In this document: piece by piece, positions 3,014 through 32,000 of the stretch
How the letters are laid out: each line of letters opens with the position of its first letter
Numbering within the stretch: the first letter of the stretch is position 1
Source of the DNA: Candidatus Syntropharchaeum caldarium
Lineage (GTDB): Archaea; Halobacteriota; Syntropharchaeia; Syntropharchaeales; Syntropharchaeaceae
Length of the DNA stretch: 32,000 bases
Reading direction: 5' to 3'
NCBI GenBank assembly: GCA_001766815.1
Contig: LYOS01000001.1
Coordinates: 420,001-452,000, forward strand
Notes under the pieces: generated by a model
The model's input: the letters and a program-made list of their open reading frames with translations, nothing else
Database searches by the model: none
Told to the model about the DNA's origin: nothing
Position numbers and translations under genes: made by a program

Positions 3014-3076
3014 CAATTGGTGGTCCAGCAGATATGGTTAACAAAATTTTTAATAGCAATAAGAAGATTAAGTAGC

Positions 3077-4294
3077 ATGCTTGAAACGAACAAGAAGGCT
3101 GCCGCAAAGTTTGGGATAGACGTAGAGCTTATTGAAAAGAAGGTAGACACACAAAAGAATATTAGAATTTTGGGTAATGATTTGACCTTTATTGGTGTGA
3201 GAGAAAAGGATAGAACAAAGCACGTCCATCGTCTGCATCCATATCTTGGCAAATTTATCCCACAACTCGTAGAAGTATTTCTAAGAAAATATTTTAAAAA
3301 AGGAGATATAATACTTGATCCATTTTCAGGCTCAGGTACAACTTTAGTAGAGGCAAATGTTTTGGGAATGAACTCAATAGGTATAGAACTATCGCCCTTC
3401 AATATATTGATACAGAAGGTTAAGACGAAGAAATATGATATTCCAGAAGTGGAAATGGAGATTAAAGATGCGTTGAAAAGATTAAAAATCTTTAGTAAAC
3501 AGCTAACAGCAGGTGGGCAGACATTGTTTGGGAAGATAGAAAAGTTTGAAACCGATAGCGAATATCTAAAAGAATGGTTTTTCGATAGAGCACTGCAGGA
3601 AATTTTGTTTTACCAAAGTATAATAAATGATTACAAAAATCAGGATGTTCTAAAGATCATTCTCTCAAGGTCTGCCCGTTCAGCAAGACTTATACCTCAC
3701 TATGACTTAGCACGTCCAAAGAAACCAGTTAGGGAAACTTACTGGTGCATTAAACACAAGAGATATTGTGAACCTATTAATGAAGCTTTAAAATTCATAA
3801 GCCGCTACAGTTATGACACCATAAAACGACTGGAAGAATTTGACCGCATCCGAACTGATGCTTTTATCCGAATTTATCAAGGAGATGCACGGACGATTGA
3901 GTTGCCCGAGAACGGAGAAATAGATGGTATTTTTACATCTCCTCCTTATGTGGGAATTATCGATTATCACGAACAGCACAGGTATGCTTATGAATTATTT
4001 GATTTCCCAAGACTTGACGATTTAGAGATAGGTCCTGCCAGAAAAGGCCAGAATGGAAATGCCAAGAAAGAATACATGGAAGGAATAATAGAAGTCTTCA
4101 AAAATATGTCTAATTACCTCAAAGACGGTGCGTTGATTTTTATTGTGGCAAATGATAAATTTAATTTATATCCTGAAATTGGAAAACAGTGCAGCTTTGA
4201 GCTAATTGATGTTTTTAACAGGCCGGTTTTGATGAGAACTGAGAGAGATTCTAATAAGTATTTTGAGTCTATATTCTATTTCAAGAAGGTGTGA
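3077..4294 (+). CDS. DNA methyltransferase (N4-cytosine or N6-adenine), motif I before motif IV
   Basis: DPFSGSGTT (nt 3317-3343, AdoMet motif I) and TSPPY (nt 3935-3949, catalytic motif IV) are about 200 aa apart. The ATG at 3077 is preferred over the TTG at 3017, which abuts the attC-like core. Confidence 0.85.
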   Translation: MLETNKKAAAKFGIDVELIEKKVDTQKNIRILGNDLTFIGVREKDRTKHVHRLHPYLGKFIPQLVEVFLRKYFKKGDIILDPFSGSGTTLVEANVLGMNSIGIELSPFNILIQKVKTKKYDIPEVEMEIKDALKRLKIFSKQLTAGGQTLFGKIEKFETDSEYLKEWFFDRALQEILFYQSIINDYKNQDVLKIILSRSARSARLIPHYDLARPKKPVRETYWCIKHKRYCEPINEALKFISRYSYDTIKRLEEFDRIRTDAFIRIYQGDARTIELPENGEIDGIFTSPPYVGIIDYHEQHRYAYELFDFPRLDDLEIGPARKGQNGNAKKEYMEGIIEVFKNMSNYLKDGALIFIVANDKFNLYPEIGKQCSFELIDVFNRPVLMRTERDSNKYFESIFYFKKV

Positions 4295-5088
4295 ATATGG
4301 GTTTATCATCAAAAACAGCAAGCGAGATTGCTGAACTTCTTACTACTACAGTGAGAGAGAAATTGAGGAGGTATAAACCTGAAACGGTCAATATGCCTTT
4401 TCATCACAGGCTTCTTGGCAAAGACCGCTATGCAATGTTTTCTTTTATCCAATCAATGAATACTACTTTTGGAATTTCCATATGGGAACAGGTTGCTGTT
4501 ATTTTGGCTGAAGGTGCCGGCAATTATGCGGAGAGACAGTATAAATTGCTTGGGGAGATAGATGGTGAGACAGAAGAACTAATTCGGGAAATTCACTACA
4601 AACTGAGAAAGGGAGAAGCTACCGCAGACAAAATTTATGAAACAGAGCAGATTAGGAAAAAGATAAAAAGAGGAGAAGCAAAAACCGATCCAGATTCAGT
4701 GGTAGATTTGTTTGTAAGGATAAAGGACGAGGAAAACTACTTTGACATTACAAGTGCAAAGCCAAACATGAAGGAATTTGTGGCATTGAAGCTAAAACTT
4801 TTGAGATGGACGGCTTTAAGATTGAGCCAAGATAAGAACATCAAAGTTTTTACAAGACTTGCCATTCCCTATAATCCTTACCACCCAGAACCTTATGAGC
4901 GATGGACATTAAAGGGATTGTATGATCTGGAAAAAGGGGAAATTTTGGTTGGAGAAGAATTTTGGAATTTTGTTGCCTGTGATAACATCTATGACGAATT
5001 ATTGGATGTATTTCAGGAAGTCGGAGAAGAATTAAGAGATGAAATAGATGAAAAGTTTGCTGAGTTTAGAATAGGTGGAAAGGATTGA
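4291..5088 (+). CDS. Candidate type II restriction endonuclease (resembles the TdeIII family from memory; unverified)
   Basis: 265-aa ORF overlapping the methyltransferase stop by 4 nt (GTGA; alternative ATG at 4297). The N-terminal NMPFHHRLLGKDRYAMFSFIQSMNTTFGISIWEQVA and an acidic/lysine segment DLFV...FDITSAKPN are compatible with a PD-(D/E)xK-type nuclease. The assignment rests mainly on context. Confidence 0.5.
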   Translation: MNMGLSSKTASEIAELLTTTVREKLRRYKPETVNMPFHHRLLGKDRYAMFSFIQSMNTTFGISIWEQVAVILAEGAGNYAERQYKLLGEIDGETEELIREIHYKLRKGEATADKIYETEQIRKKIKRGEAKTDPDSVVDLFVRIKDEENYFDITSAKPNMKEFVALKLKLLRWTALRLSQDKNIKVFTRLAIPYNPYHPEPYERWTLKGLYDLEKGEILVGEEFWNFVACDNIYDELLDVFQEVGEELRDEIDEKFAEFRIGGKD

Positions 5089-9750: not shown

Positions 9751-11184
9751 TCATCTCTTTTTATAGTAGTACACCCCTATTCCTGCTGCAATTATCGCCA
9801 CAATCAATATCACGCCCACTAAAGTTGCGCCATTTCTCGAGGTCTTCGCAGGTGCAGGTGTCGTCGCGGTGGGACTCTTCTCCTGGACATTTGTCTCTTC
9901 CTCTGGATTTGTCTCGGTGAAATAATCTGCTGGTATTGCAGGACTCGTCTCAGGTAGCATCAGTGCAAAGGGTGTGAAGTGCTCAACCTTGGTGGTAGCC
10001 GTATGCGCAGTGGTATCTATCGTGGTATCAAGGGTGTTCCAGCTTCCGTTCTCATAGACCTTTATCACAAGGTCTTCTTCATCGGCATTCTCGGGAATAT
10101 CTGCTGGGTCATATCTGAACTCAAGCTCAATTGCAGGATCGAAGGTTGCACCGTTCGGTCCAAACTCGTATGCAATTATTGCACCCTCGAACGAAACCTC
10201 CACCATCGAGATATAGCTCACAGAACTACCAGATCTACTCGTTGCAACTGTCCCTTCCTCTATTGTAAGGCTCGCTTTTCCATCATCCGATCTGAGTATC
10301 GTTGTTGACTTCACCTTTCCGTAAATATCGATCGGGACGTTGGTGGTTGTACTGCTTCCGCCCCCTCCCCCACCACCAACTACCTGGTTCTGAGTGGATG
10401 TTGGTGTAGGCGTAGGTGTCGGTGTAGGTGTAGGTGTTGATGTGCCTGACACGGTTATCGTCTCTGATGCAGTAACTGATGCGGCGTTGTCTGCACTCAG
10501 CGTCACGGTAACGGTCTTTGTTCCTGAGGAGGTTGCGTTTAGGGTCCAGCCTGGTGTGAATATGGCATCAGCGGCGATCGATGTGGATGTTGTTCCAGAT
10601 GAATCTTCAACCGTGAACCCTGAGGCTGAGATCGAGGCTACCGCATTCTGGATTGCGTAATCTCCTGAGTTCTGGGTTGTTACGTTGAATGTGAACGTAT
10701 CTCCCAGATCAACAGCGGTTGTTGTTGTGATCGTTGGTGTTGTGAATCTTGCAGGATCTTTCACCGTGACGCTCTCATAAACAGGAGATCCTGTAATGTC
10801 TGTTCCGCTCTGCTTGACATTGATCTGGATCTGGTTGGCGTACGATCCAGCACTGAATCCATATATTGTCCATGATTTTGTTACAGAGTTGCCTGCAGAG
10901 ATTGTCTGTGACTCTGTCTGATCCTGCAGGTCTGTCGTTGTTGCATTGAGGCTCAATCCCCCATTTGCAGATGAAAGATCGATCTCAATTGTGACACCTG
11001 ACTGGGATGTGGTTCCGGTATTTGAGACCTGTACAGTCAGTGTGATGCTGCTTCCTGTTGTAATCTCACTGCTTGATGTCGATGTTGTTATTGTGAGCCC
11101 TGATGCTGCTGCAGGCAAACTACATGAAAATAAAAGGATCAGAACCCATGTTAGAACTGATATTACTTTCTTCATTGCGATCAA
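9751..11184 (-). CDS. Secreted, membrane-anchored surface protein with a PGF-pre-PGF domain
   Basis: Signal peptide, Thr/Ser-rich beta-repeat region, (TP)n linker plus a Gly7 run, and a segment ending HFTPFALM typical of PGF-pre-PGF domains. The C-terminus is a TM helix followed by KKR. Confidence 0.8.
   Translation of the reverse strand: MIAMKKVISVLTWVLILLFSCSLPAAASGLTITTSTSSSEITTGSSITLTVQVSNTGTTSQSGVTIEIDLSSANGGLSLNATTTDLQDQTESQTISAGNSVTKSWTIYGFSAGSYANQIQINVKQSGTDITGSPVYESVTVKDPARFTTPTITTTTAVDLGDTFTFNVTTQNSGDYAIQNAVASISASGFTVEDSSGTTSTSIAADAIFTPGWTLNATSSGTKTVTVTLSADNAASVTASETITVSGTSTPTPTPTPTPTPTSTQNQVVGGGGGGGSSTTTNVPIDIYGKVKSTTILRSDDGKASLTIEEGTVATSRSGSSVSYISMVEVSFEGAIIAYEFGPNGATFDPAIELEFRYDPADIPENADEEDLVIKVYENGSWNTLDTTIDTTAHTATTKVEHFTPFALMLPETSPAIPADYFTETNPEEETNVQEKSPTATTPAPAKTSRNGATLVGVILIVAIIAAGIGVYYYKKR
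10403..10436 (-). repeat. Hexanucleotide (GGTGTA-like) tandem repeat encoding the TPTPTPTPTPT linker
   Basis: ggtgtaggcgtaggtgtcggtgtaggtgtaggtg is visible directly. An adjacent C/G-rich run at 10358-10378 encodes GGGGGGG. Confidence 0.7.
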
Positions 11185-14100
11185 CTCCTAACCATAAAAG
11201 CTTTGGATGCAATTGCTATCGTTGAACTTGTATCGAGCCTGATGTAGTAGGTACCAGTCGCACCTGGTGTGTACTGGATGGTTGTATTCGATTGTGTGAC
11301 CGTATCTGACTCTACTATCTCACCTGTCTCGTTGAAGATCTTCAATGTCGTTGTATTTATCCCTTCATAGATCACGGTTATATTCACGGTCTCGTTCAAT
11401 GTGAAGGTCGTTGTGTTAGCGGTTGCGTTCTGAACGATTATCTCTGCATCGATATTCGAGTTCGTAACATCGATTGAACGTTCTTTTGCACCCATACTAC
11501 CATCCGCAGCTGTGACGATCGCTTTTATGCTGTATATCCCTGGTTGTGCCGTCTGTGGCAGATCGAGTGTGACCGATACCGGCATCGAGGTTGCTGTTGT
11601 CTCGTTGTAGTCAAGTATCCTGTGTGATGGGCTGAGCAGGAGAACTTCAACCTTTGCAGGTGTTGTAGCGCCGCCTGCTCCAATTGTCGTATTTATCGTG
11701 CTCCCTGCTGTTGTCTCATTGGCCGAGCTTATCGTAACATCGAAGCTCTTTACAAAGAACGGTACCCCTCCCCCGGCGACAGTTGATCCATCCGATGCGA
11801 TGACAAGGGCGAAGTACTCACCTGAGATGCCGTTTGAGGTATCGTAGGTTGCCGTGTAGTTACCTGTTGACTCATGGGTCACGTTGAGTTCGTACTCATC
11901 CCCGGGTCCAAATACGATCAGTTTGCCTGGTGTACCCATATCGGTCTGGAGGGTTACATCACAGGGTCCGGTTGAGTTTGTCACGTTTATCGTGAATTGG
12001 ACGGTGTCACTGGTTTGGTACTCAAACGCATCGGTTGTGATCGAGACTGAGAGATCGGTTATAAAGATCGGTATCTCCTCTATGCAGGACTCACCATTTC
12101 CTGATGCCTCTGCTTCTATGATGAAGGGCGGTGTTCCAACCATCCTCATATCCCGCATAGGAATTGAGGTGTTTCCTGTGAAGTTATCACTGTCAAGCGT
12201 GAAGTTGATCCAGCCTGTACCGTTCAGGATCGAGAGCCCGGTTCTTGTGATGCGTGGACCTGGTATACCCAACGCATCCCGTTCATCTTCTGGCATGAAG
12301 AGTTCCCATGGCATCCCGACCGAGAAATTGAGCGTGCCGTTTGAGACTGCGGTGCCGTTGAGGTTGGTCACGTAGACCGAAAGATTCACGCTATCGTTGA
12401 GTTTGTATGGTTCAAAGATATCTCTTTCTGAGAGGAACTTCATCTCGAGGTTGCCGAGGACTTCAAATTCTGTGAACTCAAAGGCAGACGGCTCCCCAAT
12501 GGTTGTATTAACGAGTATCACGATCAGCTCATAGAAGCCTGGATCCAGCCCTGTGGTATTATACGATCCTGTGTAGGTGGTCGATCCACTGATATTTATC
12601 GTGCTCATTGTCCCCTCGTCAGGATTCATCACTACCACTGTCCCATTCTTTCCATTCATCGCTGCAGTAATCCCTGCATCAAAGGGATCGCTGAATGAGA
12701 CGCTCGCATTGTGGTAGAAGTTGAGACCACTCACCGTGTTGCCAGACTGATTGGACACACTCACGGTTATGTTCACCGTATTTCCTTCGTAATACTCGTT
12801 GTGGTCGGTATCAACCTCGATCTCAAACTCAGGGACAAATGCAAACGCCTCTGCATAGGAGGTTGAACTGCCATTTGTTGCTGTAAGTGAGAATATGCAG
12901 GGACCTGTATTGCTTATCGTATAATTCAGCGTTGCTTTTCCGTTTGAATCGGTTGTAACAGGCGAAATAGATGTGTTGACATCCTCCCAGTTTCCCATCG
13001 GATTCCAGTGCACCGCAACCGTGATATTAGCCCCTGCGATCGGTGTTCCGTCAAACTCGGTTGTCTGCAGATATACTCTCACAAGGTCGTTCAGCCTGTA
13101 CTTTTCCTGGTCCGTGTATGCGGTGAACTTAAAGTCCTGTACCATGAGTGGCCTGTGATCTCTTGCATAGTGCGTATTGTTGGCGTTACCGGTGAATGTG
13201 AGGAAGTAGTTTCCTGAATGATCGGGTGCTGTGAACGTGATTGTTGTCTTCCCATCACTGCCTGTTGTGTTTGAGGCTTTTAGAACCTTCCACCACTGAT
13301 TATCGCCAGGATATGTTGCATAAAGATCGACCGTCATATTTGGGATCACATTTCCCGATAGATCTGTTGCCGTAACACGAACGTTTACAGTGCTTCCAGG
13401 TTCTGCTGTCATATCATTCATCCTGATCTCAAGCCTTGAATTTGTCAGGACAAAAGTTTGTCCACCCCGTATAAACTGTGAGTGTGTTCTATTTATTGCA
13501 TCCACGATGAGCATATATTCACCTGGGTTGAGTCCTGTTGATGGTATACTGATACCTGAGGAGGTTGTACCACTCATCATGAGTGTGGGCTTTGCAAGTT
13601 TGTCAGCTGAGTATGTGTAGACGTGGTATCTGTACTCATCGACTGCAAAACCATCTGGTATATTGAAGTTTGCAGTTATGTTATTTCCCTCGCTCACACG
13701 ATCATCCATAAACATGTACGAATTCTCAACGGCCGGCATCTGCGGGAGATCAACGGTGACATCCGAGCCGTTTATCGTGATATTTCGCGTAAACGCTGAG
13801 ACATTACCCCACATCTTGAAGACAAAGTCGTACGTCCCGTTTGGCAGGTAAACATCATCATAAAACCCGTATGGCTGGTTATACCCGGTGATTAATGTTA
13901 CAATGCTATCGTTAAACGGTGCGTGGTTGTTCGTTGCATTATTCCGTACCTCTATCGTCAGGCCCTGGGTGTTTCCTGAAAAGTTGAACGTGACGTTGTA
14001 GCCCTTTTCAAGCGTGGGTGATATCAAGGTCACGCCACCCTGGGTAAGTTCGCTCAGCCTGGAATAGTTTACAAAGTTTGTGCTGTTTTTAAAGACGATG

Positions 14101-15164
14101 TCCTCTGTGTCTGTCATTATCGATAGATTGTAGCTTCTCTGAGGCGAATAAGCTGTTGTGAAGTAGTACTGGCTCCAGGAAGCTGTGTCGTTGAGTGTTC
14201 CGTTATCAACCCTTGCGGATACGTTGAACGTGCTCTCATTACCCGCAAAGTACTGCCTGTCCATGACAAAACTTATGTTACTCCCGGAGATCGATGCAAT
14301 ACCTGTCTCGAGTGGTGAACCTCCCGCCGATAGATAACTCTCCCCTGTTGTACCGTTGTAGGAAGCGGTAAAATCTGGCATATCACCAAGACTTGTATTG
14401 ATTGATATCTGGTATTCGTAATCTGTTGAATTGGGAATTGATCCGTTTAACTGCAGCATGAGAAGAAGGCTCTCGTTGTTATCGCCTCCATAGACCTTCG
14501 TGAGGTTTGCATAATCTGGAAGTGTAGGATCTGGTAGGGTATCGGTGATATTCCATGTGGCGTTTGGTTCTGGAATGGACGCATTGCGGGTGTATGATGT
14601 GAATGTTGTATACTCACCAAAACCTGTTGAAATATCGTATTCATACTTTGTCGCCCTGATATCATTCTCGGATGATAGTGGGCTTTCCATCTGGATGCTT
14701 AAGTTTGCAGCAGGTCTCAGTGGGACATCCACGATGTTGTATGTGCTGTTTAGGTACGTGATATTGAAGTTCTGTACATCGTTCACGTCATAGCGACAAA
14801 TACTGTAGTTTAGAAACTGGATGCCAATGTTTGTTGAATGGGATGCATAATCCCTACCAGCTGTTGACTGGTTATCTCCGCCCAGGACGTACAGAAAATG
14901 ATACAGCGATGAACTGGCATTACTGTATAATACAACACCACTTGCAGATGAATTATTGAACTCATACTCTCCCTGATTCAGGTTATTTGAATCGTACTGT
15001 GTCGTGCCGTTTGCAAAGAATACTGTTGAGTTCGGGATTAAAGATCCTGTCGATGCATCTTTAACCCTTATCTCAAGCGTTGAAGCAGACGTGAACGGTA
15101 CACTCACCGAAATTACGACTGCAAGTACCAATACTAATGTCATTACTTTACTTTTTTTATTCAT
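11181..15164 (-). CDS. Large secreted cell-surface (S-layer-like) glycoprotein candidate, 1327 aa
   Basis: Signal peptide MNKKSKVMTLVLVLAVVISVSVPFTSA. There are at least ten N-x-S/T sequons in the first ~165 aa and many more throughout. Repeated Ig-like/bMG-like beta modules occur (LEIRVKDASTG..., LEIRMNDMTAEPGSTVNVRV...). The gene overlaps the downstream surface gene by 4 nt. Confidence 0.85.
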   Translation of the reverse strand: MNKKSKVMTLVLVLAVVISVSVPFTSASTLEIRVKDASTGSLIPNSTVFFANGTTQYDSNNLNQGEYEFNNSSASGVVLYSNASSSLYHFLYVLGGDNQSTAGRDYASHSTNIGIQFLNYSICRYDVNDVQNFNITYLNSTYNIVDVPLRPAANLSIQMESPLSSENDIRATKYEYDISTGFGEYTTFTSYTRNASIPEPNATWNITDTLPDPTLPDYANLTKVYGGDNNESLLLMLQLNGSIPNSTDYEYQISINTSLGDMPDFTASYNGTTGESYLSAGGSPLETGIASISGSNISFVMDRQYFAGNESTFNVSARVDNGTLNDTASWSQYYFTTAYSPQRSYNLSIMTDTEDIVFKNSTNFVNYSRLSELTQGGVTLISPTLEKGYNVTFNFSGNTQGLTIEVRNNATNNHAPFNDSIVTLITGYNQPYGFYDDVYLPNGTYDFVFKMWGNVSAFTRNITINGSDVTVDLPQMPAVENSYMFMDDRVSEGNNITANFNIPDGFAVDEYRYHVYTYSADKLAKPTLMMSGTTSSGISIPSTGLNPGEYMLIVDAINRTHSQFIRGGQTFVLTNSRLEIRMNDMTAEPGSTVNVRVTATDLSGNVIPNMTVDLYATYPGDNQWWKVLKASNTTGSDGKTTITFTAPDHSGNYFLTFTGNANNTHYARDHRPLMVQDFKFTAYTDQEKYRLNDLVRVYLQTTEFDGTPIAGANITVAVHWNPMGNWEDVNTSISPVTTDSNGKATLNYTISNTGPCIFSLTATNGSSTSYAEAFAFVPEFEIEVDTDHNEYYEGNTVNITVSVSNQSGNTVSGLNFYHNASVSFSDPFDAGITAAMNGKNGTVVVMNPDEGTMSTINISGSTTYTGSYNTTGLDPGFYELIVILVNTTIGEPSAFEFTEFEVLGNLEMKFLSERDIFEPYKLNDSVNLSVYVTNLNGTAVSNGTLNFSVGMPWELFMPEDERDALGIPGPRITRTGLSILNGTGWINFTLDSDNFTGNTSIPMRDMRMVGTPPFIIEAEASGNGESCIEEIPIFITDLSVSITTDAFEYQTSDTVQFTINVTNSTGPCDVTLQTDMGTPGKLIVFGPGDEYELNVTHESTGNYTATYDTSNGISGEYFALVIASDGSTVAGGGVPFFVKSFDVTISSANETTAGSTINTTIGAGGATTPAKVEVLLLSPSHRILDYNETTATSMPVSVTLDLPQTAQPGIYSIKAIVTAADGSMGAKERSIDVTNSNIDAEIIVQNATANTTTFTLNETVNITVIYEGINTTTLKIFNETGEIVESDTVTQSNTTIQYTPGATGTYYIRLDTSSTIAIASKAFMVRS

Positions 15165-15362: not shown

Positions 15363-16571
15363 ATGAAGTTGTTGAGGATTCAGGGCACACCTCTGGATGC
15401 AGAGAAGACGATACTCGTCATTGATCTGACGCATGGAGGTAGAACGCTTGGCAGGGCGATCGAACGTTACTCTACTGCAAGAGTTCTGCTCTATGATCTC
15501 TATGGAAAAGATAAGGGATCTGCGATACCAGACTTTGATCTCTGTATCTCTCCACTCCACTCACCTGTGATGAATCCCATCTTGTTGAGAGATGAGCGCG
15601 TGATCTCCCATCACCGTGCAACAGGAGATATTCTCAGGGAGTTTAAGAAGCATCTGGGCTGCAGGATCGTCGAGATCACCGGCACAAAGGGCAAGACATC
15701 GGTTGCAACACTGTTAAAGATGATGCTTGGTAGGGAGATGCGTGTGCTTTCACTGACAAGTCGTGGGGTCGAGTACACCACATGTTCCAATCATTCCAGA
15801 TTTCTAAGGAGAGATCTGAGCATCACACCCGCACACACACTTGAAGCAATGGCAATTGCAGAATCAGAAGGTCTTGAGGTCGATATTGCGCTCTTTGAAG
15901 TTTCACTCGGGTTTACAGGAGCCGCCGATCTCAATGTCCTGACCTCCCTCAGGGGTGACTACCCAATCGCAGGCGGCATGCTTAAAGCTTCTGATGCAAA
16001 GAAGTACACGATGACGGATCTTGATGGAGAGGTGGTGGAACTTGATGATTCAGGTGGTGCACTTCCCGGTGGCATGCGATTTGGCAGGCGACAGCAGGAT
16101 AATCTTAAGCTTGCAATCTACACGGCTGAAAAGCTCGGGGTGTCGGTAGACACGATCGAGGCTGTATCTGCTTCTTCTTCGCAGATTCCATCGAGGATGG
16201 AGATTATAGAAAACGGGGACTGGGTCGTTGTGGATGACTCAAACCCTGCTTTTGATGTTGAGAACTTAACTCAGGGGATTGAGGAGATCCTGGAGGTTGA
16301 AGGTGAACATATCGTCATTGTAGGCGGTTCATACCGTGGAAGCTGCTCAAAAGTAGATCTGGATGGAGTCAGACGTGTAATCGATAGATACAGTGGAAAA
16401 ATCAGGTTCTATCTCAGCGGTGAGATTGGACAGGATCTCATCAGAGCAGGGGCAGCATACCCATTTCTCGAGGGAGGGATTGATGCAATGGTCGATGATG
16501 TGCGAGAACGTTCGAATGGAAATAAAGGGGTTATACTTATCTCGCGGAAGCAGGAGGAGGGGTATAGATGA
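15363..16571 (+). CDS. cfbE: Coenzyme F430 synthetase CfbE (Mur-ligase family)
   Basis: Mur-ligase P-loop [10 protein letters not shown], about 400 aa, and an ATGA overlap with the NflD/CfbD-type gene downstream. Confidence 0.75.
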
Positions 16572-17668
16572 GTGAAGAATTGCTCTTTGAGGTGCTCCAT
16601 CCACGTCCAAGCGCGATCGCAGCCGCAATGTATACACTGCGAGATCTCGATGTCGATGCAATCCTTGCACATGGACCAACAGGCTGCAACTTCAGGACAA
16701 GTCGTATCCTTGAGGAGGATGGCGTGAAGGTATTTACGACATCGATGACCGAGTACGACTTTATATTTGGTGGAAGAGATCGGCTCATCAAAGTTTTGAA
16801 GCGAATTGATCAGGAGTTTGACTTCAGCCTCATCGGTGTTGTCGGAACGTGTGCCAGCATGATCATTGGAGAGGATATGGAGGGTGCGATCGAGGATGCA
16901 GAACTCGATATGGACGTGATCCTTGTTGAGACGCATGGTGGATATATCGAGAATACAAAAGGCGCAATCCAGACACTTGAAGCAGCATGCAGAAAAGGGC
17001 TGATCACCGAGGATGAACTTCTGCGACAGCAAAAAATTCTCCATGCCGCAACGAAGATTGAGGAAGAGCGGGGAATGGCGTCATCTGAGTACATCACGCC
17101 GCTTCGGGGGGATGATAAGTTCGAGGTTGCAAAGCAGATCATAGAGGAGGCAAGAGAAGCTGGCAGGCTCACAGTAATCCTCAACGCAAAGAAAGAGCTT
17201 GCATATATATTTTCAGATATCCTTCGCGCGTTGAATAAAGTCTTTTTGGATGAAAATGTTGAAGTCATCAATATCGCAAACCTCGATCCTGATATCGGAC
17301 TTCCAAGAATTAGAACTTATGCAAAAAACATCGTTGAAGAGCTTTCAACTGATGGTATCACAATCGATCATCTAACAGGTGGTCTGGATGAGTATGCCAT
17401 AAGTGGTGAACGTGCGTATAAACTGGCAGCGAAGATTACACCGGGGGTTGTGGTTGTACTTGGAAATCCCAATCCTGTTATGCCACACGATACCGCCACC
17501 AGTGTTGCAGTCACAAACGGTCCCAGAGAGGTTATACCACTTCGCGAGATGGGATATGATCATGTTGTTGTTGAACTTGATGCCCACTCGCTTGTCGTCG
17601 GCGTTTCAGGGATTGTCTGCTCTGAATTTGGAGATGTCATAAGAAAGGTGGTTGCTGATGCTGAGTGA
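16568..17668 (+). CDS. cfbD: Ni-sirohydrochlorin a,c-diamide reductive cyclase subunit CfbD (NifD/NflD-like)
   Basis: The N-terminus [31 protein letters not shown] and overall nitrogenase component-1-like organisation, at 366 aa, match the expected CfbD size. It lies adjacent to cfbE. Confidence 0.8.
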
Positions 17669-27095: not shown

Positions 27096-27560
27096 GCCCG
27101 ATCGAACCGCGGGATGCATAACCTGATCAATCATGTATGTCAGGAAGTTATTTTGAGCCCGATTTAAAATGTTATTTTGATGTTTTTCATGGTGTATGGT
27201 TGTTATGCACATACCCTCCATCTTTGATGTTGATTAAGTTTATATACATGAACATGAAGATAGAGGGATGTAAACCAAAGGTTGGTATAGAAGGTAGTAG
27301 CGGATGAGGCGAGGGAAAGGTGTTTCAAGCATTGTAAGATCCATGTCACGAGGTAATGAAGGGGTAGGTAAGATATGGCATGATACATCCTCTTTGATGA
27401 CCTTGAGTGGCTGGATCCTGCACGTGCTTAAATGCCATTTTTCACGCTGTTCATCCGTTACTTTACTTTTATATCAGCTTTTGGACAAACAAAACCTGTC
27501 ATAAGCACGCTTAGGTTAAGTGTGCTATGATAAAAATTGAGATAGGAGGTTTAAAAAGAT

Positions 27561-30500
27561 ATGAATAGTAGCAAGAGATTGCTAACAATAGTGATTGCAG
27601 CGATGATGGTTACAACCATCTTTACAGTGGCGCTGACACCGACGATGGCGCAGCCATCAGACGGCGACACAGGTCCAGGTCCGCTACTTGGTAGCAGTGA
27701 TGTCTGCAAGGACTCGATCAGGCTCTACGGAACCTTTGGCGAGGGCGCTGGAAATCAGAGTGCTGTAGATCCAGAGACCGGCTTACAACCAGAGAACAAG
27801 CCGTACACGGATCCAGAGGCACCGTTCTTCCCACAGCATCCACAGGCACCGGTGAAGGACTTCATGACCTTTGACCCCGCGATCATGGACCACAACCAGG
27901 GCTATGATGAGCTTGACTTCTACCTCTGTGAGAGTGGACTGCAGGTTCAGCGCCCACAGGAGAAGGTATTCAAGCGGATGTGGTATGAGAAGGAGTGGTT
28001 CAAGGACCGCGACCGGGACGGCGACTGGGATGTTGTAATCCAGACACCAACCGGACTTGAGGTAAGGACACTTGATGAGTGGAACGCAAAGCCTGAATGG
28101 GAGAAGGTACGTGACCGAGAGAGCATCGTCGAGTGGAACAACCCAGAAGATCCAGCCGCACCTGCTGGTCATGATGTCTGGGATGCAGACGCCTATGGTC
28201 CGGCGATCGTGCAGGAGTTCACCTACATGACGGTGGATGACTGGAGAATGCCGATCATGGTAGAGAACGGAAGCAAGCTTCTTATACCGATGGCACACGA
28301 CCCAGCAAGTCCGTACAGAGGCTTGAACAGCTTCGATGCAGACCTTGATGGAGAGCGTGATGTTGTTGCGGTTGAGAGCGAGGCAACACTCGGCATGGAT
28401 ATCGACCAGGATGGTATCATCGAGTCCATGAACCCCGATGGTATCCCACTCAACGGCAATGAGACGGTTGTCTTCACACTCAGGAAGTACATGAACGCAG
28501 GAGACACACTCCAGTTCTTCGACCACAAGGTTACACTCAAGGAGGTCTTCAGCGCTGCTGATAATGCGATCTTTGATGTCTGTGACAACGAGGGTGGCGG
28601 CAGTACAAACTGTGAAGTGGACGTTCCGATAGCAGAGGGTAACTACGTGCTCTTCTACCGCGGTGCGATGAGAAATGAAGGAACGACCTTCTACGTGAAG
28701 CTGATACAGGCTGATTCAGGTGATGAGAAAGCGATCGTTGAGGTCGGACGAATGTTTGGTCAGACCCATGCAAACATAGGGGCTAACCTCTACTGGAACC
28801 AGAAAGCATTCATCGTGGATGAGGTACTCTACAGCGTGGCTGCGATCATGACAGGACCTATAGGTGAAGAGAACGGCGACTGCTTCAAGTACATCACGAT
28901 CCGCGAGAAGCTTCCAAAGCTCCCGATCAAGATCTATGGCAAGCATCTTGAGGTATGGGACATTGGTGAGATGCTTCCAGAGATGGCACCGTTCTGTGAG
29001 CCACACGAGGTGCTCGTTGATGTGCTGCCATACCAGTTCATACCACAGGATCAGCAGGATAAGATCGGTGAGAAAGAGCCAAGACCACCACTTAACATCA
29101 CGTACGACGAAGAGGATATCGAAGAGCGGTTCACAGGATCACTGCTTGAGATACTGGATGAGCCATATAAGCTTGGTCCGAACCGCATGGTTGACTCACT
29201 TGAACTCGATGATGAACAGTGGATGGTTGAGTGGTTCCACACATACCCAGAGCAGTACACAAACTTCATCATACCACCACAGGAGAGGGTACTTGTAACA
29301 CTCTCATGGAGGGCATGTGAGGCAGAGACAACGATCTGGGATAGTGATCCATATGAGCCAATCGATACCAAGTCAGGCGACCGTTTGAAGTTCTGGTACG
29401 AGGACTGCACAGGACACCTCTACGTCAATGAGAGCGACTCCTCGATCAGGCTCTACGGAACCTTCGGCGAGGGCGCCGGAGATCAATCCATACCCTGTGA
29501 GAACAAGCCGTACACGGATCCTGAGGCACCGTTCTTCCCGCAGCACCCACAGGCACCGGTGAAGGACTTCATGACCTTCAACCCCGCGATCATGGACCAC
29601 AACCAGGGCTATGATGAGCTTGACTACTACCTCTGTGAGGACGGACTGCAGGTTCAGCGCCCACAGGAGAAGGTATTCAAGCGGATGTGGTATGAGAAGG
29701 AGTGGTTCAAGGACCGCGACCGGGACGGCGACTGGGATGTTGTAATCCAGACACCAACCGGACTTGAGGTAAGGACACTTGATGAGTGGAACGCAAAGCC
29801 TGAATGGGAGAAGGTACGTGACCGAGAGAGCATCGTCGAGTGGAACAACCCAGAAGATCCAGCCGCACCTGAGGGTCACAATGTCTGGAATGCAGACACA
29901 TATGGTCCGGCGGTTGTGCAGGAGTTCACCTACATGACGGTGGATGACTGGAGAATGCCGATCATGGTTGATGCCGGAAGCAAGCTTCTTATACCGATGG
30001 CACACGACCCAGCAAGTCCGTACAGAGGCTTAAACAGCTTCGATGCAGATGGCGATGGCGCCCGTGATGCAGTGAGGGTTGAGAGTGAGAACACGCTCGG
30101 CATGGATATCGATCAGGATGGCGTGAATGAGTCCATGAACCCCGATGGTATTGCACTTAACGGCGATGAGACGGTTGTCTTCACACTCAGGAAGTACATG
30201 AACGAGGGAGACACACTCCAGTTCTTCGACCACAAGGTTACACTCAAGGAGGTCTTCAGCTATCCAGATGTTGCGATCCTTGATGTCTGTGACAACGAGG
30301 GTGGCAGCAGTACAAACTGTGAACAGGACGTTACGATAGCAGAGGGTAACTACGTGCTCTTCTACCGCGGTGCGATGAGAAATGAAGGAACGACCTTCTA
30401 CGTGAAGCTGATACAGGCTGATGCAAATGATAATAAGGCGATCGTTGAGGTCGGACGAATGTTTGGTCAGACCCATGCAAACATAGGGGCTAACCTCTAC

Positions 30501-31367
30501 TGGAACCAGAAAGCATTCATCGTGGATGGTGTCCTCTACAGCGTGGCTGCGATCATGACAGGACCTATCGGTACTTACGATGGTGACTGCTTCAAGTACA
30601 TCACGATCCGCGAGAAGCTTCCAAAGTTCCCGATCAAGATCTACGGCAAGCATCTCGATGTACTGGAGCCCTATGAGCTAATTCCAGAGCCAGCACCGTT
30701 CAGCGAGGATCACGAGGTGCTCGTTGATGTGCTGCCATACCAGTTCATACCACAGGATCAGCAGGATAAGATCGGCGATAAGATCGCACGACCACCACTC
30801 GAGATCTGGTACACCGAAGAGTCGATTGAGCCACGGTTCACAGGATCACTGCTTGAGATACTGGATGAGCCTGAGTGTCTCGGTCCGAACTTCATCCATA
30901 ACGACTACTGCTCGAGTCTTCTCAGCGAACAGTGGATGGTTGAGTGGTTCCACACATACCCAGAGCAGTACACAGCATTCGTGCTACCAGAGGGCGAACT
31001 CTACCTGATGACGCTTGCATGGTTTGCACCAGAGGCAGAGACAACGATCTGGGATAGTGATCCATATGAGCCAATCGTTACCAAGTCAGGCGACCGCGCG
31101 AAGTTCTGGTATGACCCAGCAGATCCGACGGATATCTATGTGACGAAGACAACTCAGACACCGCCACCGCCACCACCGACATGCAAAGGCGACTTCAACG
31201 ACGATGGCGTCATCAACTTCGATGACTTCGTGGAGTTTGCAGGAGCATACGGTTCTTCCAGTGGTGATCCCAACTACAACGCTCTCGGCGACTTCAACGA
31301 CGATGGCGTCATCAACTTCGATGACTTCGTGGAGTTTGCAGGCGTCTATGGCACATCCTGTCCGTGA
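27561..31367 (+). CDS. Secreted 1268-aa protein: two tandem ~570-aa modules of unknown function plus a Pro linker and a C-terminal dockerin
   Basis: A strong RBS AGGAGGT lies upstream and a signal peptide ends ...PTMAQP. The internal duplication and PPPPPP linker are visible. Two GDFNDDGVINFDDFVEFAG segments match the DxNxDGxIxxxD Ca-binding loops of dockerins. Confidence 0.9.
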   Translation: MNSSKRLLTIVIAAMMVTTIFTVALTPTMAQPSDGDTGPGPLLGSSDVCKDSIRLYGTFGEGAGNQSAVDPETGLQPENKPYTDPEAPFFPQHPQAPVKDFMTFDPAIMDHNQGYDELDFYLCESGLQVQRPQEKVFKRMWYEKEWFKDRDRDGDWDVVIQTPTGLEVRTLDEWNAKPEWEKVRDRESIVEWNNPEDPAAPAGHDVWDADAYGPAIVQEFTYMTVDDWRMPIMVENGSKLLIPMAHDPASPYRGLNSFDADLDGERDVVAVESEATLGMDIDQDGIIESMNPDGIPLNGNETVVFTLRKYMNAGDTLQFFDHKVTLKEVFSAADNAIFDVCDNEGGGSTNCEVDVPIAEGNYVLFYRGAMRNEGTTFYVKLIQADSGDEKAIVEVGRMFGQTHANIGANLYWNQKAFIVDEVLYSVAAIMTGPIGEENGDCFKYITIREKLPKLPIKIYGKHLEVWDIGEMLPEMAPFCEPHEVLVDVLPYQFIPQDQQDKIGEKEPRPPLNITYDEEDIEERFTGSLLEILDEPYKLGPNRMVDSLELDDEQWMVEWFHTYPEQYTNFIIPPQERVLVTLSWRACEAETTIWDSDPYEPIDTKSGDRLKFWYEDCTGHLYVNESDSSIRLYGTFGEGAGDQSIPCENKPYTDPEAPFFPQHPQAPVKDFMTFNPAIMDHNQGYDELDYYLCEDGLQVQRPQEKVFKRMWYEKEWFKDRDRDGDWDVVIQTPTGLEVRTLDEWNAKPEWEKVRDRESIVEWNNPEDPAAPEGHNVWNADTYGPAVVQEFTYMTVDDWRMPIMVDAGSKLLIPMAHDPASPYRGLNSFDADGDGARDAVRVESENTLGMDIDQDGVNESMNPDGIALNGDETVVFTLRKYMNEGDTLQFFDHKVTLKEVFSYPDVAILDVCDNEGGSSTNCEQDVTIAEGNYVLFYRGAMRNEGTTFYVKLIQADANDNKAIVEVGRMFGQTHANIGANLYWNQKAFIVDGVLYSVAAIMTGPIGTYDGDCFKYITIREKLPKFPIKIYGKHLDVLEPYELIPEPAPFSEDHEVLVDVLPYQFIPQDQQDKIGDKIARPPLEIWYTEESIEPRFTGSLLEILDEPECLGPNFIHNDYCSSLLSEQWMVEWFHTYPEQYTAFVLPEGELYLMTLAWFAPEAETTIWDSDPYEPIVTKSGDRAKFWYDPADPTDIYVTKTTQTPPPPPPTCKGDFNDDGVINFDDFVEFAGAYGSSSGDPNYNALGDFNDDGVINFDDFVEFAGVYGTSCP
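27714..31142 (+). repeat. Intragenic tandem duplication (unit 1 27714-29441, unit 2 29442-31142)
   Basis: The copy offset is 1728 nt at the start, 1707 nt after a 21-nt indel and 1713 nt after a 6-nt indel. For example, 27936-28164 is identical to 29643-29871 (229 nt). Confidence 0.95.
31188..31342 (+). repeat. Dockerin duplicated segment: 56-nt perfect direct repeat at a 99-nt spacing
   Basis: ggcgacttcaacgacgatggcgtcatcaacttcgatgacttcgtggagtttgcagg occurs at both 31188-31243 and 31287-31342. Confidence 0.9.
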
Positions 31368-31400: not shown

Positions 31401-32000
31401 ATGAAGGCAAGAATGACAGGGGCGGGCTTTGCAGCCCTCCTCTTAATATTTAGTCTCTTCGCAACCATTAGCGTGAGTACAGTCACAGCAGCAGGTCCTG
31501 AGGTCTATGTTAACCCAGCGTTAACTGAAGATCTCTGCCCGGGTGATACATTCACGGTCACGGTCGAGGTGGACTCCGACACATTCAACCTCAGAGCCGT
31601 TCAACTGGATCTGGTGTATGATACAACCAAATTCCAGGTAAACGGTGCTACTGTCGAGGATGATCTCTTTGGAGCAGGTAACTATCTGGATCTAAGCGAT
31701 CTCACAGACGACGGAGAGCTGAACCTCGCTATAGCCAGTACGAATCCACCCTACGGACCAGAATCTGGAACCCTTGTAACCGTAGAGTTTGAGGTGAAGG
31801 CCGGCGTTCCAGACAACACATACGCACTCGATCTGCAGAATGTCGTGCTCAAGGATGAGAACAACGATGACATTCCAGGTGTTACCGTAACCGACGGTGC
31901 GGCTGAGGTAGATTGTGGTGCACCACCAGCAGGTCCTGAGGTCTATGTTAACCCAGCGTTAACTGAAGATCTCTGCCCGGGTGATACATTCACGGTCACG
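31401..32000 (+). CDS. Cohesin-repeat (scaffoldin-like) secreted protein, 5' part (open at window end)
   Basis: Not in the ORF track because no stop is reached. ATG 31401 follows GGTGA. Signal peptide is MKARMTGAGFAALLLIFSLFATISVSTVTA. The module PEVYVNPA...DTFTVTVEVDSDTFNLRAVQLDLVYDTTKFQV...GTLVTVEFEVKAGVPDNTYALDLQNVVLKD has the cohesin pattern. A second module starts at 31929. Confidence 0.75.
   Translation, partial: MKARMTGAGFAALLLIFSLFATISVSTVTAAGPEVYVNPALTEDLCPGDTFTVTVEVDSDTFNLRAVQLDLVYDTTKFQVNGATVEDDLFGAGNYLDLSDLTDDGELNLAIASTNPPYGPESGTLVTVEFEVKAGVPDNTYALDLQNVVLKDENNDDIPGVTVTDGAAEVDCGAPPAGPEVYVNPALTEDLCPGDTFTVT
31491..32000 (+). repeat. Tandem cohesin-module repeat, period 438 nt
   Basis: The 72 nt gcaggtcctgaggtctatgttaacccagcg...ttcacggtcacg at 31491-31562 recur identically at 31929-32000, where the window ends. 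Confidence 0.8.

Follow-up and report, generated by a model that had tools for sequence, protein, structure and literature searches.

Tandem repeats encoded within the genes of surface proteins can evolve in concert, as in the streptococcal Rib/alpha C proteins and in staphylococcal and other repeat adhesins. In such proteins the repeats of one gene share nucleotide-identical blocks while orthologues diverge, the repeats being homogenised by recombination or gene conversion.

Several systems of the cell exterior resemble the protein described here. The major S-layer proteins with DUF1608 domains consist of a signal peptide, tandem domains, a tether of about 60 aa and a C-terminal transmembrane helix (PMC3361143). 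Archaeal sheath (SH) proteins are built on a small two-sheet, six-stranded amyloid-like core domain with a cap, and they sometimes contain two or three repeated cores with near-identical neighbouring copies (PMC11576556). A third arrangement is the cohesin-dockerin display of bacterial cellulosomes; dockerin and cohesin proteins have also been catalogued in ANME archaea by Chadwick et al. (2022, PMC9012536), who stated that experiments would be needed to pair them.

Syntrophic methane- and alkane-oxidising archaea rely on the cell exterior for contact with partner bacteria, for the extracellular matrix and for electron transfer, and few of their surface proteins have been characterised. Here we describe a family of two-unit proteins that spans these lineages. 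Its reference member is encoded in the window, by which we mean the whole 32,000-nucleotide stretch of Candidatus Syntropharchaeum caldarium DNA that was analysed. The host resembles the butane oxidisers of Syntrophoarchaeum: its methylmalonyl-CoA mutase large subunit is 89% identical to that of Ca. Syntrophoarchaeum butanivorans.

Layout of the two-unit gene

A preliminary description of the locus had reported a secreted protein of two tandem, collinear units. The reading frame, which encodes 1268 aa, is present and divides into two units as described there (Table 1), and a signal-peptide-like segment is present at the N-terminus. This segment is probably cleaved after TMA, and the N-termini of relatives are equivalent to it. 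Unit a is arranged as an N-segment, a beta-rich core with DxDxDG loops, a variable loop and a C-segment. Unit b has the same layout, but the two C-segments are of different types. That of unit a ends in KFWYEDCTGHLYV and bears a first-unit signature (VTLSW, EDCTG.LY) common to the first units of distant relatives, whereas that of unit b ends in KFWYDPADPTDIYV and bears a terminal-type signature (MTLAW, DPxDxTDIYV) common to second units and to single-unit relatives. The acidic DxDxDG-like loops noted earlier appear in both units as DADLDG, DIDQDG and DRDRDG, and the protein indeed lacks a CxxCH haem motif. In the structural model, the variable loop of unit a is of low confidence and probably exposed.

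Table 1. Positions in the window of the two-unit gene, its parts and the gene that follows it.
Feature	Position	Strand	Basis
GGAGG Shine-Dalgarno-like site, 11 nt 5' of ATG	27545..27549	+	sequence reading
Whole gene (1268 aa), secreted protein of two modules and a dockerin tail	27561..31367	+	ORF list, coordinates checked
Signal-peptide-like N-terminus, MNSSKRLLTIVIAAMMVTTIFTVALTPTMA	27561..27650	+	basic n-region, hydrophobic core, A-x-A-like end
Unit a (aa 52-627)	27714..29441	+	unit HMM boundaries, alignment, AF2 models
Perfect 229-nt block in core of unit a	27936..28164	+	equals 29643-29871
Variable loop/linker of unit a, KLGPNRMVDSLEL	29169..29207	+	pLDDT <50, model residues 486-498
C-segment of unit a	29208..29441	+	dS 0.5-0.7, positional signal
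Unit b (aa 628-1194)	29442..31142	+	unit HMM boundaries, alignment, AF2 model, coordinate check
Perfect 229-nt block, partner copy in unit b	29643..29871	+	equals 27936-28164
Variable loop/linker of unit b, LGPNFIHNDYCSSLL	30879..30923	+	pLDDT <50, model residues 1056-1070
C-segment of unit b	30924..31142	+	positional signal
Thr/Pro-rich linker, TKTTQTPPPPPPT	31143..31181	+	sequence
Dockerin, two Ca-loop/helix repeats, GDFNDDGVINFDDFVEFAG, Cys on both flanks	31182..31364	+	direct repeat with 33-aa spacing; profile match
TGA stop codon	31365-31367	+	coordinates checked
Start of downstream gene, signal peptide and tandem cohesins	31401..32000 (window end)	+	33 nt after stop codon

Differences between the units are clustered

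The two units are 89% identical in nucleotide sequence (ungapped columns) and 85% identical in amino acid sequence. Indels of 21, 6 and 3 nt had been reported between them, which equal the 7, 2 and 1 residues of the amino acid alignment. The perfect 229-nt block proved exact on checking, the antisense reading frames at 27947..28141 and 29654..29848 do have the same translation, and the diverged peptides quoted from other parts of the units are found in the sequence.

The mosaic of identical and diverged stretches also stands. Synonymous differences between the units are clustered beyond chance in a permutation analysis, and protein-level constraint does not account for the mosaic. Among 448 codons with an identical degenerate amino acid in both units, 43 differ synonymously. 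These differences have an index of dispersion of 2.45 (P = 1.5e-4), and the longest run without one extends over 87 codons (permutation P = 0.002). Windowed dS between the units ranges from 0 to about 1.0. The 229-nt block contains 0 synonymous differences over 69 degenerate codons, and we take this part of the unit core to be the latest tract to have been converted.

A separate candidate, the target of a diversity-generating retroelement, was not borne out. The 223 mismatches between the units are distributed over all bases (in unit a: A 65, G 59, T 50, C 49), and there is no reverse transcriptase among the scanned ORFs of the window.

The cores evolve in concert in an old two-unit family

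Relatives of the window protein form about 300 clusters at 50% identity (E <= 1e-3), or 167 at E <= 1e-30, and 34 proteins are close relatives. The family is present in ANME-1, ANME-2d, GoM-Arc1, Archaeoglobus, Methanolobus and others. Its motifs occur in collinear order, all of them in both units: MWYEKEWFKD, NSFDADGDG..D.V.VESE, GRMFGQT.ANIG, KYIT.R.KLPK and EWF.T.P.QYT..KFWYD. At the site of the variable loop, relatives have VWA, Cys-rich or ~260-aa insertions (P0014, P0035, P0001 and the BLZ2 protein), and accessory domains of surface type (PKD, VWA, CARDB, NosD/beta-helix) are found in the family. One paralogue has a cytochrome-c-like segment after a truncated second unit. Two units are the standard state of this conserved, uncharacterised module: of 97 long members, 59 contain two cores and 27 a single one. 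Because most long members are two-unit proteins and none has three units, the duplication is old rather than recent.

We compared core identities within and between six proteins: WIN (the window protein), P0035, P0049, P0037, METP1 and P0046. Cores a and b are 0.8-1.0 identical within a protein, compared to 0.4-0.7 between proteins. The C-segments, in contrast, are more similar by position than across positions in 60 of 66 protein pairs, while the core gives no positional signal (50 of 120). Additionally, L001 of ANME-1 has a perfect block of 663 nt common to units a and b, and L010 of GoM-Arc1, a 1.92-Mb record, has one of 613 nt. Taken together, these observations show a core that is homogenised lineage by lineage and a C-terminal stretch of ~75 aa that retains first-unit or second-unit identity, a pattern that indicates concerted evolution by intragenic gene conversion. 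Convergent constraint at the junction, and not common ancestry, could nevertheless underlie part of the positional signal seen in the C-segment. In our model, repeated intragenic conversion between two ancient units would have produced the mosaic, with tracts in the core only. We propose that the unit ends would remain different from each other because of what adjoins them, which is not the same at the two ends.

Two explanations of the mosaic had been put forward at the outset, and ongoing gene conversion is the better one, given the clustered dS, the C-segment signal and the perfect blocks in other genomes. The other, in which a single tandem duplication occurred recently and the copies then diversified locally without gene conversion, would fit the greater similarity of the units to each other than to the nearest other protein (about 65% identity), as well as the location of the diverged patches in loops. 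It predicts uniform dS, however, which is at odds with the significantly clustered values, and the two-unit layout is family-wide and ancestral. C-segments keep their positional identity across distant lineages, relatives only 50-60% identical share the EDC(T/S)G.LY junction motif and the VTLSW/MTLAW signatures, and the same mosaic is found independently in ANME-1 and GoM-Arc1. Duplication alone would require many parallel events, each remaking the same junction, and we consider it very unlikely. The assembly itself deserves scrutiny, as short-read assemblies break at genes of this family, and most database copies are fragments: the 229-nt identical block exceeds usual k-mers, and most public homologues lie on contig fragments of 2-6 kb that are broken in or near the repeat. 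Misjoined short reads, or the collapse or expansion of an array, might then have created the mosaic or the copy number. Yet the reading frame is unbroken across 3.8 kb, unit a has a proper first-unit junction and unit b a proper terminal signature, as in relatives, and two units are the family norm. Independent assemblies, including the 1.92-Mb record, contain identical blocks that are as long or longer, making an artefact highly improbable. Gene conversion between old units thus remains our preferred account, and the gene is a clear natural case of domain-level concerted evolution at a fixed copy number of two, which suggests that the protein needs two nearly equivalent halves for its function.

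A dockerin tail next to a cohesin-repeat gene

The ends of the gene, which the preliminary description missed, define the cellular context of the protein. It has no hydrophobic helix at its C-terminus and ends instead in a Pro/Thr linker and a dockerin, with a cohesin-repeat gene adjacent. A profile of ten family tails, that of the window protein included, matched dockerins in the PDB over its full length (best 2y3n_B, E = 2e-20). Nine of the ten tails match Pfam Dockerin_1; the window tail alone is sub-threshold (E = 0.007). The downstream gene matches Pfam Cohesin (PF00963, E = 1.3e-14) and has a 438-nt tandem repeat (31486-31562 = 31924-32000, 99% identical). It is cut off by the end of the window, and the part inside the window shows no membrane anchor. 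The same order, a two-unit gene and then a cohesin gene, is found in Methanoperedens (L003, L004 and L007) and in GoM-Arc1 L010, where a three-cohesin scaffoldin lies directly 3' of the two-unit gene. In many family members, among them the ANME-1 protein of L001, the tail is of another, EF-hand-like kind and cannot be identified as a dockerin with confidence.

Because the two genes are adjacent and syntenic, they encode a ready-made candidate cohesin-dockerin pair. The downstream protein is probably the docking partner, a putative scaffoldin. Adjacency and conserved synteny suggest that the dockerin plugs the two-unit body into the cohesins of this neighbour. Since it would dock into multiple cohesins, several copies would be displayed outside the cell.

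Predicted structure and role of the module

The module had been called unrecognised, and indeed profile searches of Pfam, NCBIfam and PDB sequences gave no match to it. An AlphaFold model of the two units reached a pLDDT of 88.5 and a pTM of 0.87, compared to 72.7 and 0.77 for an AF2 model of a single unit, in which the N- and C-segments fall below 50. This much higher confidence of the joint model suggests that the two units form one compact body, which is probably stabilised by Ca2+. A Foldseek search of the AlphaFold model against the PDB found no convincing neighbour.

Judged from its sequence, the protein is probably a cohesin-tethered, Ca-binding surface or adhesion scaffold. For the full reading, an exported cell-surface protein of two modules that acts as such a scaffold and whose core is kept alike by gene conversion, we estimate a probability of roughly 0.6. 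The displayed two-unit body would serve as a structural or adhesive platform in a matrix, a canopy or cell-cell contact, and the exposed inter-domain loop would be the site at which relatives insert binding domains (VWA, Cys-rich).

Bacterial dockerin-bearing proteins are mostly enzymes (PMC9012536), and the module might likewise be an extracellular enzyme, for example one that degrades glycans or proteins, carried by a scaffoldin in the manner of cellulosomal enzymes. Many D/E/H/K/R residues are invariant at 50-60% identity across orders, P0034 is fused to a subtilase (PF00082) and P0038 to a NosD/beta-helix domain, and the member in L013 adjoins a Peptidase_S8 gene. We nonetheless regard an enzyme as unlikely: profile searches of Pfam, NCBIfam and the PDB matched no enzyme family, Foldseek returned no enzyme fold at a probability >0.2, and a structural or adhesive protein would better explain why the tandem pair is obligate, its core homogenised and its insertions of binding type (VWA/PKD). 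A lattice-forming, S-layer-like envelope subunit is a quite unlikely alternative, in which the protein would be a distant relative of the tandem-DUF1608 proteins of Methanosarcina. The preliminary description had pointed to these S-layer proteins, a fair lead in that DUF1608 (3u2g) is the only PDB fold with a non-trivial Foldseek probability and the top meaningful match of both models (0.87 and 0.82). A signal peptide and, in most cases, a pair of tandem domains are likewise found in DUF1608 proteins (PMC3361143). Neither ANME-1 nor Archaeoglobus, both of which carry the two-unit family, has an S-layer domain that is recognised from sequence (PMC9012536). The match itself is weak, however (E = 2-4e-3, TM-score 0.13-0.25, rmsd about 17 Å). 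PF07752 was not matched by the window protein at E <= 1 or by 28 family members at E <= 10, and a search of PDB sequences with the family profile did not match 3u2g. With low TM-scores and no PF07752 signal, we do not assign the protein to DUF1608. Moreover, Methanoperedens has both DUF1608 domains (PMC9012536) and the two-unit family, which is therefore not a simple DUF1608 replacement. A broader picture is comparably doubtful: the two-unit body would be the main block of an unrecognised surface layer or canopy in ANME-1, ANME-2d, GoM-Arc1, Syntrophoarchaeum and Archaeoglobus, held by cohesins without a membrane anchor, and a very distant, enlarged relative of DUF1608. Conversion would then keep the halves equivalent because lattice or partner contacts need pseudo-symmetry.

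Comparison with known systems

Like the SH proteins of Methanospirillum, Methanothrix and ANME-1 (PMC11576556), the two-unit proteins are beta-rich, exported envelope proteins found in ANME-1. The window protein differs from them in size, motifs and its dockerin tail, and sheath proteins were not among the Foldseek PDB matches of either model, in a library that may be without a sheath structure. It also resembles the tandem-DUF1608 S-layer proteins of the Methanosarcinales (MA0829, PDB 3u2g; PMC3361143), which are likewise exported to the archaeal envelope and mostly consist of a tandem pair of beta-rich domains. The signal peptide and tandem pair of that layout are present, but the unit is about twice as large (570 aa versus 260 aa), a PF07752 match is lacking, TM-scores are at most 0.25, and a dockerin takes the place of the tether and transmembrane anchor.

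In contrast to Rib/alpha C-type repeats, the window gene has only two very long (1.7 kb) units at a fixed copy number, and homogenisation affects only the core while the unit ends keep position-specific sequence. With the cohesin-dockerin display of bacterial cellulosomes and of ANME dockerin and cohesin proteins (Chadwick et al. 2022, PMC9012536), the locus shares a C-terminal dockerin with a duplicated Ca-loop/helix, a Pro/Thr linker, a neighbouring secreted tandem-cohesin protein and, if the predicted binding occurs, multi-copy cargo on a scaffoldin. Here, however, the cargo is no recognisable enzyme, substrate-binding protein or S-layer domain but an obligate pair of a 570-aa module, and the gene for the cargo lies beside that for the scaffoldin, in an order conserved between families of alkane-oxidising archaea.

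Organization of the gene ends and the cohesin neighbor

The two-unit gene encodes an exported 1268-aa protein with a C-terminal dockerin, and the next gene encodes a cohesin scaffoldin, an arrangement with conserved synteny in relatives. The preliminary description had recognized the two-module layout but missed both gene ends (the signal-peptide details, the linker and the dockerin) and the cohesin neighbor. Scanned singly against Pfam Dockerin_1, the window tail falls under threshold (E = 0.007). A profile of ten family tails matches PDB entries for cellulosomal dockerins along the entire length (2y3n_B, E = 2e-20, and many others), and Pfam reports Dockerin_1 in nine of the ten. The downstream gene carries a cohesin domain (PF00963, E = 1.3e-14).

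Coordinates of features in the window and in one relative's locus
Feature	Location	Details
Restriction-modification pair	3017-5088 (+)	type II
Two adjacent large ORFs	9751-15164 (-)	477 aa and 1327 aa
Mur-ligase-like and nitrogenase-like ORFs	15363-17668 (+)	overlapping
GGAGG	11 nt upstream of ATG	two-unit gene
Two-unit gene	27561..31367 (+)
Signal-peptide-like N-terminus	aa 1-30
Unit a	27714-29441
Unit b	29442-31142
N-segment	about 1-105 of unit	domain mapping
Core	about 157-485 of unit	domain mapping
Variable linker	between core and C-segment	domain mapping
C-segment	unit end	80 aa; domain mapping
Longest perfect a/b block	27936-28164 = 29643-29871	229 nt, exact
Antisense ORFs	27783-30653 (-)	up to 247 aa
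TKTTQTPPPPPPT linker	directly after unit b
C-terminal tail	after linker	61 aa; two GDFNDDGVINFDDFVEFAG repeats, 33-aa spacing
Downstream gene	starts 31401 (+), 33 nt past stop	signal peptide and cohesin; exits window
Cohesin gene tandem repeat	31486-31562 = 31924-32000	99% identical, period 438 nt
Archaeosortase-like and small secreted proteins, GoM-Arc1 locus L010	6645-7638, 16045-17385	membrane proteins with motif DECTGIFEM; secreted proteins with PGF-CTERM-like ends

In three Methanoperedens loci (L003, L004 and L007), a two-unit gene with a dockerin end is followed directly by a two-cohesin gene, and in the GoM-Arc1 locus L010 the gene after the dockerin-ended two-unit gene encodes three near-identical cohesins. 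Proteins with dockerins and cohesins are abundant in ANME, including multi-cohesin scaffoldin-like proteins, and their cognate pairs have been described as unknown (PMC9012536). The ANME-1 locus L001 (213-4637) is different: the tail is EF-hand-like, and proteins that we judged by eye to be cohesin/dockerin-like lie a few genes downstream.

Several side observations concern these loci. Many members have a conserved tail of about 60 aa in place of the dockerin (YY...GGDG..ID..E.I.A..DYL...PF......DL..Y...YL; P0002, P0003, P0004, P0012, P0013, P0016, P0017, P0025 and P0031, and also L001); searches did not establish it as a dockerin and gave EF-hand-like matches only. The L010 locus also carries PGF-CTERM proteins and archaeosortase-like genes, the latter flanking the two-unit/scaffoldin pair together with small secreted proteins that have PGF-CTERM-like ends, and the region resembles an island of surface-protein genes. 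Association of the family with subtilases recurs: the single-unit member P0006 directly follows a Peptidase_S8+PA gene (L013 736-4876), and in P0034, a relative from Chloroflexi, a portion of the module is fused to a Peptidase_S8 domain.

A module family without a Pfam, NCBIfam or PDB sequence match

The module had been described as unrecognized, and this holds: neither Pfam nor NCBIfam has a model that fits it, whether in the window protein or in 28 relatives, and searching PDB sequences with a family-profile HMM gave a chance match only. Set beside these scans, a reading of the module as an enzyme cargo is rather unlikely. A word-based search yielded 34 relatives, all but one (29%) sharing 36-60% identity and most of them lying on short contigs, and an exhaustive profile search over 1.84 billion cluster representatives returned 300 clusters at E <= 1e-3, 167 of them at <= 1e-30. 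Named sources of members include Methanophagales (ANME-1), Methanoperedens (BLZ1, BLZ2 and METP1), GoM-Arc1, Methanospirareceae and Methanosarcinaceae, Methanolobus vulcani (WP_154810789.1), Archaeoglobus sulfaticallidus and Thermoplasmata, with a few from Chloroflexi/Anaerolineae. Public labels are "hypothetical", "PKD domain-containing", "VWA domain-containing" and "dockerin type I domain-containing protein". We found no treatment of the module or its orthologues in the literature, in papers or supplements, and for the Methanoperedens orthologue MPEBLZ_00201 we looked for expression data and found none. The word-search matches are mostly fragments, on contigs of 2-6 kb with a boundary inside a unit; short-read assemblies probably break at the long near-identical repeats, and the family would therefore be under-represented and mis-annotated in databases.

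By domain mapping in relatives, each unit has four parts. Units a and b of the window protein differ most in the variable linker, and relatives have extra sequence inserted at this site: VWA in both P0014 and P0035, a Cys-rich segment in P0001, and some 260 aa in the BLZ2 protein. In METP1, unit b ends ahead of its C-segment and a cytochrome-c-like segment follows. This METP1 paralogue (L003 8912-13957) also has an N-terminal DUF11-like region and an extra C-segment before unit a, and its cytochrome-c-like stretch, NCASASCHG (a CxxxxCH motif), is located ahead of the dockerin; it possibly links the scaffold to extracellular electron transfer. The window protein has no CxxCH motif and does have DxDxDG-type loops, as the preliminary description had noted; these loops occupy equivalent sites in both units.

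Structure prediction for one unit, which had been proposed as a check, gave an AF2 model with a pLDDT of 72.7 and a pTM of 0.77, in which the N- and C-terminal segments fall below 50. The two-unit model reached 88.5 and 0.87, with pLDDT below 50 only at variable loops (model residues 486-498 and 1056-1070). The predictions are consistent with one compact two-unit body, the alignments behind the two models being different. Foldseek searches with both models against the PDB and BFVD (a viral library) returned nothing at E <= 0.001. The sole match with appreciable probability (0.87 and 0.82) was 3u2g, the M. acetivorans S-layer DUF1608 structure, which could suggest an S-layer-like lattice subunit related to that domain; with TM-scores of 0.13-0.25 and an rmsd of about 17 Å, we consider this unlikely. 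ANME-1 and Archaeoglobus are described as lacking recognizable S-layer domains (PMC9012536). Below DUF1608 came generic Ig/Fab sandwiches or TonB barrels (probability <= 0.1), and the sheath (SH) protein family was weighed and set aside. The predicted fold is beta-rich and at present without structural assignment.

A probably old duplication whose cores appear to evolve in concert

As previously described, the units are collinear apart from three small gaps, here of 7, 2 and 1 residues. They share 89% nucleotide identity over ungapped columns and 85% amino acid identity. The described mosaic of identical and diverged blocks is also borne out. Where both units have the same degenerate amino acid, only 43 of 448 codons differ synonymously, and these are clustered (dispersion index 2.45, P = 1.5e-4), leaving a stretch of 87 codons with no such difference (permutation P = 0.002). 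dS ranges from 0 to about 1.0 by window. The mosaic is more than uneven protein constraint alone. Overall dN/dS is 0.47; because the diverged patches combine values of 0.5-0.6 with high dS, we see no evidence of positive selection there, and the two sliding windows above 1 each rest on one synonymous difference. The antisense ORFs inside the gene, some of which form identical pairs, we treat as non-coding by-products that mirror the sense-strand repeat and composition, the identical pair following from the perfect block.

Such identity between units could reflect a recent tandem duplication, which the preliminary description had offered beside gene conversion. The long, M-started family members comprise 59 with two cores and 27 with one; three cores occur in none of them. 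First units share the junction motif KFWYEDC[T/S]G.LY...S[I/L]R.YG and VTLSW; the ending KFWYDP.D.TDIYVNR, together with MTLAW, characterizes second units and single-unit proteins. These signatures hold across proteins of only 50-60% identity, which, with the 59 two-core members, argues against a recent event and makes it quite unlikely. When proteins are compared, C-segments from the same position are more alike than those from different positions in 60 of 66 pairs (identity 0.519 vs 0.460), and in this segment window unit b is closer to unit b of P0037 (0.76) than to the window's own unit a (0.73). The core has no positional signal (0.443 vs 0.442; 50/120), and within one protein the cores resemble each other far more than those of any two proteins do, with a-b identities of 0.86-0.91 in the window, 1.0 in both P0035 and P0049, 0.77-0.82 in P0037 and 0.80-0.85 in METP1.

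The longest perfect a/b blocks span 663 nt in ANME-1 L001, 613 nt in GoM-Arc1 L010 (on a 1.92-Mb record), 229 nt in the window, 86 nt in L003 and 53 nt in L007. An assembly artefact could produce a repeat of this kind; given the family-wide two-unit rule, this is very unlikely, and the two-unit gene is a real feature. DGR-type adenine-directed mutagenesis is rejected on the a/b mismatch spectrum. All three are less likely than the simplest account, an old duplication with repeated gene conversion between the cores inside the gene in each lineage and with unit ends that keep their positional identity. This reading upholds gene conversion and sharpens it to an ancient duplication evolving in concert. 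The cohesin repeats seem homogenized as well, because near-identical repeats occur both in the window gene and in the L010 scaffoldin, where a 582-nt perfect block (from 13861) is shared between repeats.

Genomic surroundings and proposed role

Other genes in the window include a methylmalonyl-CoA mutase large subunit with 89% identity to its counterpart in Ca. Syntrophoarchaeum butanivorans. A nitrogenase-component-1-like ORF (PF00148) begins inside a Mur-ligase-like ORF (weak PF08245), a pair that resembles cfbE-cfbD of coenzyme F430 biosynthesis and that would fit an MCR/ACR-using archaeon. These genes point to an alkane oxidizer similar to Syntrophoarchaeum as the source. The restriction-modification pair combines an N6/N4 DNA methylase with a TdeIII-type endonuclease (PF09520, E = 5.5e-64); it lies where the GC content of the window is lowest (36-40%) and may stem from horizontal transfer. 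The two large adjacent ORFs have weak CARDB/DUF11 and MG2/Big_1/invasin-like matches only; they probably encode additional surface proteins whose domains are poorly recognized.

We propose that units a and b would pair compactly, stabilized by Ca, and that the dockerin would dock to the neighbor's cohesins, giving multi-copy surface display. The module may then serve in structure or adhesion, and the exposed linker would act as a site where binding domains can be inserted. It would be of clearly greater interest as a building block of the envelope in alkane-oxidizing archaea, should that be shown. The cellular role is best placed with surface display of the known cohesin-dockerin kind, carrying a new, structurally unassigned family of cargo.
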